Source of the DNA: an uncultured virus (IMG/VR IMGVR_UViG_3300044591_001667)
Taxonomy: Duplodnaviria; Heunggongvirae; Uroviricota; Caudoviricetes
Strand: one strand, 5' to 3'
Length of the DNA: 20,000 bases
IMG/VR virus record: IMGVR_UViG_3300044591_001667
The notes under the pieces were generated by a model. The model worked only from the letters and a program-made list of their open reading frames with translations. It ran no database searches and was not told the origin of the DNA. The translations under genes were made by a program, and so were the position numbers. This document shows, one piece after another, positions 7,468-20,000 of the stretch (within the stretch, counting starts at the first letter, position 1; every line of letters begins with the position of its first letter).

Positions 7468-7584
7468 ATGGCTGCAAAAACATCAAGAGTTAGAAACGAT
7501 AGTCGCAAGTGCGGGAAAGCTTCTAAAAAGCGTCCAAAGCAATTTGATGCTCAGCGTAGAAGATTAGTTACAGTAACGCCCTGA
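7468..7584 (+). CDS. 38-aa highly basic peptide (not in ORF track)
   Basis: MAAKTSRVRNDSRKCGKASKKRPKQFDAQRRRLVTVTP with an AAGGA RBS. The last codons overlap the tRNA 5' end. Confidence 0.5.
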   Translation: MAAKTSRVRNDSRKCGKASKKRPKQFDAQRRRLVTVTP

Positions 7585-7649
7585 TAGCTCAGTGGTAGAG
7601 CATTCGCCTTGTAAGCGAAGGGTCGTCAGTTCAATCCTGACTCGGGGCT
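7578..7649 (+). tRNA. tRNA-Thr(UGU)
   Basis: Acceptor stem GCCCTGA/TCGGGGC, D-arm GCTC-AGTGGTA-GAGC, anticodon arm TTCGC-CT TGT AA-GCGAA, T-arm GTCAG-TTCAATC-CTGAC. CCA is not encoded. Confidence 0.95.
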
Positions 7650-11265: not shown

Positions 11266-11302
11266 AGCAAAACCCGCCCTCAAAACGAGGACGGGTCTTT
11301 GC
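11262..11302 (-). terminator. intrinsic terminator of the NlpC/P60 operon
   Basis: Minus strand reads ACCCGTCCTC-GTTTT-GAGGGCGGGT followed by TTTGCTTTTT, just after the stop at 11309. Confidence 0.8.
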
Positions 11303-11308
11303 TTACCG

Positions 11309-11551
11309 CTACTTTTTCTTTTTGAAGGAGCCCTTTAGTTTCAAGATGGCAGATTTCTCTGAATACTTGACCCACTCGTATACAAAGATGCATGCAGCGA
11401 TTAGGAAGCCTAAAGACTCTGCTTGAACTATGTAATAAGTGGTTGGGTTGACAAGGTACGTCTCCCACGGGAAGGTATATGCAACTACAGGGAATGCAAT
11501 TACATTACCGAACACAACTGAAGTCACAATGCTCTTGTATACGTTTGTCAT
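11309..11551 (-). CDS. small two-TM membrane protein
   Basis: Start assigned to MTNVYK (AAGGA RBS). Two hydrophobic segments and a basic tail. Confidence 0.65.
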   Translation of the reverse strand: MTNVYKSIVTSVVFGNVIAFPVVAYTFPWETYLVNPTTYYIVQAESLGFLIAACIFVYEWVKYSEKSAILKLKGSFKKKK

Positions 11552-11570
11552 TTTGTCCTTTCTAGTGTTT

Positions 11571-12332
11571 CTAGTTGTTAGTTTCAACAATTCGAGTATA
11601 GGTAATTACAACATCTCCGTTGCCCTTACCCCATTTGCTGATTGATGTAATTTCAGTCTTGTCGCCTCTTTTACCGCCAGAGTGGAGCATCTCATCTGGT
11701 CCAGTATAAATAGCGGTGTGGAAGGCCCCATTTGAGCCTCTATGAGTAAATGCAACTATGTCTCCGATTTTAGGATCATCGACAAAGGTTCCTGCCTCTT
11801 TTTGAACTGAAGCACTGTGATAGAGAGATATATCGAGATGTGCGTACATCCAAAGCACCAGACCAGAACAGTCCCAAGCGTCGGGGGTAGAGCCACCTAA
11901 GGCATACCAAGTTTTACCGACGTACTGTTTAGTTAGGGCAAGTGCCTTATTAAGGTTCTCTGTGTCTCTTGCTATCTTCTCTAGGCGAGCAATCTCTGCT
12001 TCTAGTTCTGCTTGCTTGCGCTCAGCTTCTGACTCAAGTTTGTCTTGCCTTGCCTTTTCTTGAGCCATCCAGTCTATGGAACCAATCTCAGGAGTTTCTA
12101 CCCTGACAATTGGACCAGTCACCACGGAGGATGTCTTTACTGGGCCCGAAAGAACGTTTGTTACTTGAACAGGATTTACAATCTTGGGAGCTGGCAGTGT
12201 TACTAGTTGTTCTGTTGTTACTTCTTGAATCGGCTCTGGCACTACTTCTGCAAGAGCAAAAGCTGCGCTAGTACCTGTAGTTATTACTAGTGCCGTCAAG
12301 GCACCTACTGTAATAAATCTTTTCCTTTTCAT
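11571..12332 (-). CDS. secreted NlpC/P60 (C40) peptidoglycan endopeptidase
   Basis: Signal peptide, coiled coil, then YALGGSTPDAWDCSGLV, IGDIVAF, HTAIYTG and MLHSG. Confidence 0.9.
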   Translation of the reverse strand: MKRKRFITVGALTALVITTGTSAAFALAEVVPEPIQEVTTEQLVTLPAPKIVNPVQVTNVLSGPVKTSSVVTGPIVRVETPEIGSIDWMAQEKARQDKLESEAERKQAELEAEIARLEKIARDTENLNKALALTKQYVGKTWYALGGSTPDAWDCSGLVLWMYAHLDISLYHSASVQKEAGTFVDDPKIGDIVAFTHRGSNGAFHTAIYTGPDEMLHSGGKRGDKTEITSISKWGKGNGDVVITYTRIVETNN

Positions 12333-12450
12333 TTGGCGACCTACCTTTCCTTGGTAGTTAGTACTCGGTCGTTGAGTGTTGAGGCGTCCTATTCAGTTAT
12401 GAACCTCCAGCTTAGTGTGATTCGAGTCACAGCTCAACTAGAGGTTATTT
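12333..12450 (-). ncRNA. candidate structured cis-regulatory 5' leader
   Basis: -10 TATGAT at 12462-12457. Stems 12446-12436/12412-12402 and 12431-12427/12420-12416. RBS-sequestering hairpin at 12371-12337. Confidence 0.55.
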
Positions 12451-12587
12451 CAATCTATCATATAGTTTTCTTTAAATTAGCCTTATCTTCGATTTATTGA
12501 AAGCCCCCAACTCCTACATCCCAGTAACCACCTACCATCCACCCCCTTTCCCCCCTTTTTTCTTTTTGCCCCGTTTTCTGCCGTTTT

Positions 12588-16840: not shown

Positions 16841-16865
16841 ATTGCCGTGCGTTGGAGGCAGTGCT

Positions 16866-19800
16866 TTGTTGCGTACTATTTTTGGAAGAACCCAGAACAA
16901 TCTAAAAAGATTTTGGGTATCAGTTGCTGCCACCCCTTTTATAATTTTTTTCATTGGAGTTCTAGCTCCACAAGTTGCACATGCTTCTGACGAACAGGGG
17001 GTCCAACCACCACAAGACCCAAACCAAACGCCAAATTTAAATGCGTCGTCGGGAGGTGATCCACAAGCTTCTTCCAGTGGCTCAACGCAAGAGCAAATCA
17101 CAGAAGCGGCAACCGCAGTAGCAACAGCGGTATCTGAAGTAGCAACTCTAAACACACAAGTAACTCAGATTACGGAGGTAGCAACATCAATATCTCAACC
17201 TTCCACGCAAATAACAGAGGCAGTATCTAGCGCACAGACCTCAGTAACAGAAGCATCCATAGCTGTTCAGACTGCAAATACAGCAGTTCAGTCAGGTCAA
17301 ACAGCAGTTACAGTCTCTCAAGTAGCAAATCAAACATTAGCTCAAGCAACTGCCACAGTAACAACTCAAACAGCAGTAGTAGAAGCAGCACAAACAACTC
17401 TTACTCAAGCATCAACAGCAGTAGATTCTCAAGAGACAGTAGTAGCTTCCGCTCAGGCAGAGGCAACATCAACAGCAGAAGCAGCAAGTGCTTCTAATAC
17501 ATCTACAACAGTTACAGAAACTTTTGCAAATAACACCACAAGCGTAGTCACAGTTACTACTGGATCTGGTGTAACTATTGGTGGTAATTGGAATACTGCT
17601 CAAACATCAGGATCGGGTCTTGTAATTCAATACCCAGCAAATGATGTTGTTATTGATGTAAACCCAAGCAACACTGGAACTGTCACTTCTGTGACCATGG
17701 GCGTATACGCTAAAAATGGCGATACAGAGATGGTAGCAATAAACACGGATGGTTCAACTACTAGTACAGTGATTGATAATAACGTTTCTTCTGAGACACA
17801 AGCAGTTGGCTACACTTCTACTGAAACCATAACAGGCTCATCTATTGAGACACTGATAATTAAAAAAGATGCTGACTACTACATTATTGACAATATTGCT
17901 GTAACAAAGACTACTTCTGACCCAGCTCTCACAGCAGCAGCTCAAGAAGCAGCTACAACTTTAGCTACAGCTCAAGCAACACTTACTACTCTTCAAGCTG
18001 CAGAATCTACAGCTACAGCAACTTTATCTTCGGAACAAACAACTTTAGTTCAGGCTCAAAATACAGAATCTACAGCAACTACTGTTGCTCAAGCTGCTTC
18101 TGCAGCTATGACAACTTTAGTTTCAACAGCAGTGACAGCTACAGAAACAGCAGTATCAGAGGTTAAAGAAGCTAAGGTTGAAGTTGCAGAGGCTCAGGTA
18201 ACTGTGTCCGCAGCAGCAATCGAGGTTGTCTCTAATACACTACAAACAGTAGTTACATCTTCAGATGCTCTTCCATTACAGAAACCAGAAGTAGTTTCCG
18301 TAGTTGATGCTGCTGTAGATGCAGTAGTTGAAGCTCAGGAAGCAGTTGAAGCAGCACAAACTGCTATGGAGACTGCAGTAACTCTTGCATCTACTGCACC
18401 TACAGTTGCAGCAGCGACAGCAGTTGTAGAAGATAAAACTCAAGTTCTAGCCACTGCCTCTGCAGCAGTAGACGCTCAAGAAGTAGTAGTAACGCAAGCC
18501 GTTACTACCGAGGCTGCTGCACAGGCAGTTGTTGATTCTGCTACAAGCCAAGGACTAAAGGTTGAGGTCTACAGTGTTGCAGGACAAAACAACGCTCCAG
18601 TTGTTCCAGAAGGTGCAACACCTATTCACACAACCACTGACACCAATGGGATCAGCGAACAATGGGGTGGAGGAGCTGTTGCAGGATCTAATAGAGCAGA
18701 AGATGTAGTTGTTAAATACACAGGAACTTGGACACCTTCAGTTGATGTAACTCATGTCTATGCTCCAGCAGATGATGGAGTAAAGCTTTATCTTGATGGT
18801 CAGCTTGTAATTAACGACTGGTATGACAAGGGTGGCGGAGGAAGTGTTGTCGAACAGACAATCTCTGCGGGAGATAGTAAAGAGTTTGAGCTGTGGTATT
18901 ACGAAAATGGCGGGGGAGCTGGCGTTTGGTTCTATCGTCACAACAATTCAACTGGCATGGTTATAGCTCCCGGTTCTGAGTTCTCTCAAACAACTGCTAC
19001 CGCCGAGCAACTTCAGACTTTAGCAACTGCAGAAGCAACTTTAGCTACAGAGACCCAAACACTTTCAACTTTACAAGCTACAGAAACTGCAGCTACTACT
19101 AATCTTCAAAATGCTCAAGCAAATCTTCAAGCAGCCAATACTGCAGTTGCTGCAATGGATGCCGCTATTACTGCAGCACAAACTGCAATAACAGAAACAG
19201 TCGAGGCAATTACAGCTGTACAAACTGCACAAACAGTCGTGGAGCAAGAAGTTATTCTTCAAAGCCCAATTGGGGCACCAACAAATATTGTTGTCACACA
19301 GTTAGAAAATGGCGATGTCCAAGTTTCATGGGACCCACCAACAGGCGTGATTTCACCAGAACGTTATGCAATTTCTTGGTCTGTTGGAGATAGCGGATGG
19401 GGTGTTGCAACTGGTAATGCAGGAGACGCTAATGCTCTCAATACAAGCATTGTTCTTTCAGCAGCTTTGTTTGAAAGCACTGGTGGATTAGACACCACTT
19501 ACCAAATTAGTGTTCGTTCAGATAATGATTCATTGGCTAAATATTCAACAACAACTGCTACTCAGCTACTCGTCGTTGATCCCACCCCGGCTCCAGAACC
19601 TCAACCTTCTCCTCAACCTGAACCAAATCCCAATCCAAATCCAGAGCCTCAGCCTGATCCCGAAACTGAACCCACACCAACCCAGCCAGAGCCAGAGCCA
19701 GAGACGCCGCAAGAGCCACAGCCAGAACCAGAGCCAGAACCCACCACACCTGAAGAAGAAAATCCATCTGAGCCTCCTACTGAGCCCGAACCTGAACCAG

Positions 19801-20000
19801 AGACTCCTGTTGAGCCTGAACCAGAACCTGAAACACCTGTGGAACCAGAACCTGAACCAGAGACTCCTGTTGAGCCTGAACCAGAACCTGAAACACCTGT
19901 GGAACCAGAACCTGAACCAGAGACTCCTGTTGAGCCTGAACCAGAACCTGAAACACCTGTGGAACCAGAACCTGAACCAGAGACTCCTGTTGAGCCTGAA
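16866..20000 (+). CDS. 3'-truncated giant secreted/surface protein: signal peptide, Ala/Thr coiled-coil stalks, PA14 domain, FN3-like domain, Pro-Glu repeats
   Basis: TTG start 7 nt after GGAGG. The frame is consistent to the window end (1045 codons, spot-checked). Signal [18 protein letters not shown]14 at ~18550-18990 ([27 protein letters not shown]); FN3 at ~19265-19580 (APTNIVV, VSWDPP, YQISVRS). Confidence 0.88.
19788..20000 (+). repeat. perfect 60-bp coding tandem repeat (~3.5 copies, continuing off the window) encoding ([10 protein letters not shown])n
   Basis: The lines starting at 19801, 19861 and 19921 are identical. Each unit is two synonymously diverged 30-bp halves. Confidence 0.95.

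Follow-up and report, generated by a model that had tools for sequence, protein, structure and literature searches.

In actinobacteria, regulatory RNAs tend to gather on the genes for cell-wall hydrolases; they include c-di-AMP riboswitches and a number of orphan motifs with an unexplained signal. The c-di-AMP riboswitch (ydaO; RF00379), a 134-nt multi-junction pseudoknotted model, precedes actinobacterial NlpC/P60 genes, as at 10 of the 20 cellular loci that served as our positive control, and the one on C. glutamicum nlpC most likely acts on translation, according to the accessible part of PMC9960051. The NLPC-P60 motif (RF03033) is an orphan cis element of two GC-rich hairpins upstream of NlpC/P60 genes. 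The lysM-Actino, lysM-TM7, lysM-Prevotella and M23 motifs are orphan 5' UTR motifs of cell-wall-degrading genes, for which the accessible text of PMC5737381 states that c-di-AMP binding was not observed. From phages, PMC10690425, in its accessible sections, describes structured RNAs of IMG/VR that lie at most 25 nt from genes and are proposed to act in cis.

The locus considered here lies in a window of 20,000 nucleotides which looks like phage DNA and whose relatives sit on virus records of 110–152 kb. On its minus strand an NlpC/P60 gene, predicted from its sequence to encode a secreted peptidoglycan endopeptidase (by eye, the N-terminus resembles a signal peptide), forms a unit with a small membrane-type ORF and is preceded by the leader whose parts are collected in Table 1. 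A preliminary description had listed a −10 element, an 11-bp stem around a palindrome, a linker, two CUCAAC repeats and an RBS-burying hairpin, and all of them are found on this strand before the NlpC/P60 ORF where it had placed them. Positions 12333–12462 are identical across one contig run, at an uninformative depth of 2. Elsewhere the window encodes a cobalamin adenosyltransferase, with proteins 56–63% identical to it in 17 of 301 genomes of the actinobacterial phylum, the only one searched, as well as a tRNA and a long Thr/Ala-rich ORF. A 12-nt intergenic element is present in five exact copies (0.10 expected at one mismatch), of which two directly precede a start codon and two others occupy the gap 5' of the NlpC leader; two related phage records have 3 and 5 copies. 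It is, we assume, reminiscent of mycobacteriophage start-associated sequences.

Table 1. Features of the leader, its gene and the surrounding window, with examples of the second leader class
Feature	Position	Strand	Remarks
Conserved core hairpin, 35 nt	12337..12371	minus	model R1 score 78.6 bits
Stem P1, 5 bp	12367-12371/12337-12341	minus	
Purine bulge, 3 nt	12364-12366	minus	
Stem P2, 4 bp	12360-12363/12342-12345	minus	
UAA/GAAA internal loop		minus	between P2 and cap P3
Variable cap P3	12350-12357	minus	1-2 bp and variable loop
Extended Shine-Dalgarno (SD) sequence	12339..12349	minus	3' arm of hairpin; pairs with actinobacterial 16S 3' end
Two CUCAAC repeats	12371-12383	minus	
A/C-rich linker	12372..12389	minus	includes CUCAAC repeats; possible ribosome standby site
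Conserved single-stranded box AYAACUKAAUA	12390..12400	minus	at or near candidate transcript 5' end
Candidate near -10 TAAGCT	12409..12414	minus	8 nt before box
11-bp stem	12402..12446	minus	arms 12436-12446/12402-12412, two U-G pairs; clade-specific case of optional 5' hairpin, 4 leaders
Palindrome TGTGA-N6-TCACA	12416..12431	either	inner stem of 5' hairpin or CRP/GlxR-type DNA site
Candidate far promoter, extended -10 TG-A-TAGATT	12452-12460	minus	overlaps TATGAT 12457-12462
NlpC/P60 endopeptidase ORF, 253 aa	11571..12332	minus	PF00877, E 8.7e-15; AUG at 12332
Small membrane-type ORF	11309-11590	minus	likely start 11551; downstream of NlpC/P60, same unit
Intrinsic terminator	11269-11299	minus	ends NlpC/P60 and small-ORF unit (11269..11590)
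tRNA gene	7578-7649	plus	
Thr/Ala-rich long ORF	16842-20000	plus	Pro-Glu repeats at end; continues past window edge
12-nt intergenic element	4039, 11254, 12599, 12759, 13571	plus	five exact copies
Class II leader examples	L113:1375-1503, L128:1370-1500, L164:1220-1347		24 more in alignment A3

The leader stands above chance because of the comparative evidence on its 3' hairpin and not because of its single-sequence fold, which does only modestly better than shuffled sequence (146 nt folded, z −1.98, 9 of 200 shuffles equally stable). Relatives conserve only the last 35 nt of the leader and an upstream 11-nt box. From 127 distinct leaders with enough flank, two (L395 and L434) were chance matches, and the other 125, all of phage NlpC/P60 genes, carry the core hairpin and are referred to as class I. 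Their proteins are 28–100% identical to that of the window (median 41%; 108 of 109), and the distance from P1 to the AUG is usually 3–4 nt (4 nt in the window). Alignment A2 was made from 77 distinct leaders by omitting 14 near-duplicates and L158, which is aberrant; in the 62 that remain, the drawn structure is paired in 98.6% of 657 cells, against 24–46% in controls with the structure slid along the alignment. Two-sided changes are found in 36 cells over five pairs, a count reached in none of 500 shuffles, with nine in the best slid control. RNAalifold recovers P1 unaided, and three of its five pairs carry two-sided changes. P1 and P3 covary; one of the four P2 pairs is invariant and none has two-sided changes. 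These counts are tilted in favour of the drawn structure, because many A2 rows were retrieved with patterns that fix P1 and because relatives share changes; the structure was also drawn from the same sequences.

Two scans are free of the first of these biases. With the 5' arm of P1 left free in metagenomes (117 rows), 47 of 49 evaluable NlpC-linked matches pair at all five positions, as do 12 of 13 matches before ORFs running off the locus, whereas a full P1 is seen in only 1 of the 54 other matches. With a change forced in the 3' arm, a viral scan gave 29 stretches, 16 of them distinct, and among the 10 distinct ones before NlpC genes eight are fully compensated and two retain P1 with a bulge. 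The commonest P1 variant is spread over nine positions of a rapidly built protein tree (catalytic domain, 135 columns, 57 open branches), a scatter that would follow from recurrence or recombination. Conservation extends to unpaired bases: at loci found by protein alone, 24 of 31 distinct class I leaders have an exact copy of the 8-mer containing them, and 28 have CUAA. The pair closing the UAA/GAAA loop in A2 is CG in 49 rows, AU in 6, GU in 5 and another in 2. A loop E register for AGUA/GAA is incompatible with the covariation of the P3 pair and was discarded. Of the 125 hairpins, 50 are capped by GNRA tetraloops, which are known for their stability. As judged by comparison, the hairpin does fold as RNA and does cover the SD, so that the proposal of a cis RNA burying the RBS of a phage NlpC/P60 gene holds for this 35-nt element.

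The extended SD:16S duplex amounts to 11 bp and −13.7 kcal/mol and is the strongest among the 29 starts listed in the window. Most of these starts show some SD pairing and only a few (4076, 14096, 1913) look leaderless, which weakens the suggestion that many neighbouring genes are so. The hairpin averages −7.5 kcal/mol, 121 of 125 leaders have the SD core paired with a probability of at least 0.5, and no conserved alternative fold was found among the leaders folded. On this comparative basis we consider it very probable that the hairpin acts in cis as an RNA occluding the SD. The 3' arm is accounted for by SD function, as is P2 via pairing; the unpaired AA and RAG, which are retained in 24–28 of the 31 protein-found leaders, are not. 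The pairing CUACC/GGUAG, drawn in the preliminary description, is energetically preferred in the window (folding energy −7.2 against −5.8 for P1+P2, with a P2 probability of 0.17), yet no more than 21 of 127 leaders could form it. CUCAA before P1 accompanies the CUACC loop in 15 of these 21, compared with 4 of the 104 others, the carriers being mostly close relatives, and the SD is paired irrespective of it.

How widespread is this arrangement? Among 79 loci found by protein alone, 50 have class I leaders and 19 (20 by eye) a different type, class II; three are P1-only (one distinct), two have a short hairpin, and truncated loci make up the remainder. The reduced forms are P1 alone enclosing an A-rich loop (L124:13-68, L152) and a short hairpin with a U-run before the SD (L177, L180). 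L158 and L173 are without the internal loop. P1-only and loop-less leaders indicate that the core is dispensable in some phages. Five phage records have one strong motif copy each. The genes flanking the motif form 34 clusters on its upstream side and 50 on its downstream side, a variability which suggests that leader and gene move as a unit, and no conserved regulator gene is found among these clusters. Model R1, scored on 34–86 candidates per genome, had no match in 60 relatives of the Actinomycetota bin G001, in 150 genomes of its phylum or at 60 cellular NlpC loci, and a pattern scan of GTDB (at least 121 rows) returned mostly a Pseudomonas tRNA terminator, with one true match (L319) among the matches listed. 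The sole match from a bacterial bin falls within G001:C118 (L533-L534; 46.6 kb), which by eye looks like a phage contig: its phage-like structural genes include terminase-, portal- and capsid-like ORFs, and it also has catalase-peroxidase- and heme-oxygenase-like genes. On the genomes sampled, the motif is apparently phage-specific. The small-genome actinobacterial genus of G001 (G001–G037, G188–G191) is no more than a candidate host, from this one co-binned contig; diadenylate cyclase (DAC) is found in 0 of its 41 genomes, and no ydaO-like leader was seen by eye on its NlpC genes among the matches listed. Cultured phages gave only distant NlpC relatives, and the one such locus checked is without the motif.

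Class II leaders (27 distinct, alignment A3) serve the same NlpC/P60 family with another layout, a hairpin with an anti-SD segment, then another hairpin, which varies, and an SD of canonical type. The class I model matches none of seven, and Rfam gave no match in the five class II loci scanned. The upstream hairpin region pairs with the SD at −9.1, against a shuffle mean of −5.7, and 11 of 27 leaders are individually at or below 5 in 100 shuffles. The two classes are intermingled on the catalytic-domain tree, whose well-supported branches force a minimum of 5–7 changes, and the four-row clade of the window contains one class II member. Class II thus appears to have repeatedly exchanged with class I on the same gene family, though recombination swapping leader and signal peptide would give the same picture; we regard it as a second candidate motif. 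By eye, L582, L594, L600, L113 and L122 have direct repeats of about 11-nt period 5' of the class II leader, and also an SD with a short upstream ORF that does not keep its frame between leaders. These repeats resemble the C. glutamicum MtrA consensus as given in the accessible part of PMC3353115.

What is the role of the conserved unpaired bases then? Their retention beyond the needs of the SD, together with the fit of the internal loop to a known UAA/GAN module, leads us to favour, tentatively, a translational operator whose shape a protein recognises. Transcripts from a host sigma-A-type promoter would begin with an open 5' segment rich in A and C, which could serve as a waiting place for the 30S subunit. 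The weak hairpin (about −7.5 kcal/mol) would compete with SD:anti-SD pairing (about −13.5) and keep translation low, while the bulge and the UAA/GAAA loop would be kept as a shape for a trans-acting RNA-binding protein, either of the host or encoded elsewhere in the phage. By clamping or releasing the hairpin this protein could time hydrolase production. Repression, partner and signal are what we infer beyond the comparison itself. Several observations count against a recognised operator: no partner gene lies beside the motif, reduced leader forms exist, the window energetically prefers CUACC/GGUAG to P1+P2, and the invariance of P2 may be forced by the SD alone. Ranked together, a protein-recognised operator still comes out as most likely, followed by a passive tuner and then a ligand riboswitch.

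It is possible, if rather unlikely, that nothing binds and that the hairpin just lowers the output of a very strong SD to a level tolerable for a wall-cutting enzyme, stabilising the mRNA as well, with the UAA/GAAA module merely setting stability. Such passive tuning is in keeping with the 3' arm being accounted for by SD function, with P1-only and short-hairpin leaders on the same gene family, with the GNRA caps and with the lack of an expression platform among the leaders folded. It is at odds with the internal loop, as the anti-SD could pair with GAAA directly, yet AA and RAG stay unpaired.

Less probable still, and in our view unlikely, is a compact riboswitch with the SD inside the aptamer, in which an ion or a cell-wall metabolite would lock the hairpin and turn translation off. 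Gene class and position match those of the cellular actinobacterial c-di-AMP riboswitches, that of nlpC probably also acting on translation (PMC9960051, accessible part); unpaired bases are conserved and the leader has been exchanged for a second structured one. However, the motif is a single unbranched hairpin with neither pseudoknot nor junction, it was not found in the cellular genomes sampled, and pairing between the upstream box and the coding start was rejected, as it is no stronger than in permuted sequences (−3.35 against −3.42). A new phage riboswitch class of ~35 nt, sensing an ion or wall signal to gate the hydrolase, interchangeable with class II as a second new, pseudoknot-like anti-SD class and used in hosts without c-di-AMP synthesis, is to be viewed with corresponding doubt. 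An RNA thermometer is very improbable: a weak hairpin with a non-canonical interior over a strong SD would suit it, but it would not need sequence-specific conservation, and over the range 5–60 °C the predicted SD pairing of four examples stays at 0.63–0.94 (only canonical pairs modelled). Even less credible is mimicry of an rRNA protein site (L20, 23S H40/H41) that would couple the hydrolase to free ribosomal protein, although a 23S helix of the candidate host, which we take to be H40, shares a stem, 5' bulge, short stem and UAA/GAA. As in L20 sites, where two helix-adjacent adenosines are conserved, As precede P1, but L20 binds a two-helix junction (both points from the accessible part of PMC1865079), no second helix follows P1, the registers differ and no Rfam r-leader matches the window or 18 loci.

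Equally improbable is the switch of the preliminary description, which spans the whole leader and has GUUGAG alternate between the 5' stem and CUCAAC, opening the RBS. While the covariation that was to be looked for does exist in the 3' hairpin, the conserved RNA is not this switch, its parts being found in 3–4 of 127 leaders. The 11-bp stem is shared by three by pattern and four by eye; three one-sided changes among these four keep pairing in all, which favours the switch, as does one possible compensation in L146 (GUUGAG to GUUGAA, the first CUCAAC to UUCAAC). GUUGAG occurs together with CUCAAC in 3 of 127 leaders and their pairing probability in the window is 0.000; forcing it costs 3.6–9.6 kcal/mol (7.5–9.6 in the window), and the SD is still paired in each of the eight forced folds. 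CUCAAC is also kept without its partner in L004 and L085, and if the near −10 is used the 5' stem lies outside the transcript.

Upstream of the hairpin, A makes up 44% and C 23% of the linkers of 95 leaders, and the CUCAAC repeats are subclade-specific (two copies in 5 of 127). The box AYAACUKAAUA is found in 98 of 127 leaders, mostly unpaired, and TAnnnT lies 5–9 nt before it in 64 of these 98 compared with 69 of 588 background windows. The idea that the box marks promoters throughout the genome was rejected (eight exact matches in five phage records, five in the reversed control; across the window four at one mismatch, 2.96 expected). A promoter and then some hairpin precede the box in 51 of 98 leaders; 26, that of the window included, have both this arrangement and a near −10. 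The far promoter would start the transcript at the first base of the 5' stem. In three leaders the core directly follows a −35/−10 promoter and the box is absent, so the hairpin can stand alone. The palindrome TGTGA-N6-TCACA, present in 5 of 127 leaders and once in the window (1.07 expected at one mismatch), is retained in L004 though the outer stem is lost. We assume that it fits the CRP/GlxR consensus; the candidate host genus gave only weak partial HTH matches for CRP. C. glutamicum nlpC is controlled by GlxR and MtrA, as far as the accessible part of PMC9960051 goes. The box resembles a half-site of the MtrA consensus in the accessible text of PMC3353115, but no second half-site was seen by eye, and an MtrA site was set aside on that ground.

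Returning to the known families, Rfam has no family that matches over the leader at E≤1, either in the window or at the 18 loci scanned, in agreement with the earlier remark that the ydaO consensus is missing. Specifically, RF00379 (gathering 38 bits) gives no match there; its consensus blocks are absent from A2, which shares only short words with it such as CUAAC and GUAGG, and its size and topology set it apart from a 35-nt hairpin. RF03033 (gathering 53.7 bits) has a different 5' consensus and two hairpins instead of one, and finds no match in the motif-bearing G001 or the phage loci scanned. The motifs of PMC5737381, belonging to another gene family and to cells, differ by their description in the accessible text and by the Rfam null. 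The candidates of PMC10690425 before NLPC_P60 genes are only two, in human-gut and soil viruses with one instance each as far as its accessible part goes; the phage motif differs from them by listed annotation only, and an unannotated candidate could coincide with it. No description of the motif was met in the literature searched, mostly outside subscription journals. In the UAA/GAN internal loop (UA_handle family), a structural module and not a regulatory family, described as forming tertiary contacts, the phage loop fits the example printed in the accessible part of PMC2615604: A2 has UAA opposite GAN between helices, with a covarying flanking pair, and the bulge of the phage motif would be 2–3 nt. 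As is general for riboswitches, a covarying structure lies in the 5' UTR. The SD is inside it, and the leaders folded showed no conserved alternative fold. The RNAs of actinobacterial wall-hydrolase genes are thus joined by a very small, well-covarying motif and by another leader class, which has replaced it several times on the same gene family; together they would mean that these phages control a secreted wall enzyme at translation. The two short RNAs also offer a cheap way of testing what the orphan wall-gene motifs sense. If the hairpin is only a passive tuner the significance is modest. On sequence comparison, the motif is a real and probably undescribed orphan cis-regulatory RNA, of a known kind but with a new structure and a phage home.
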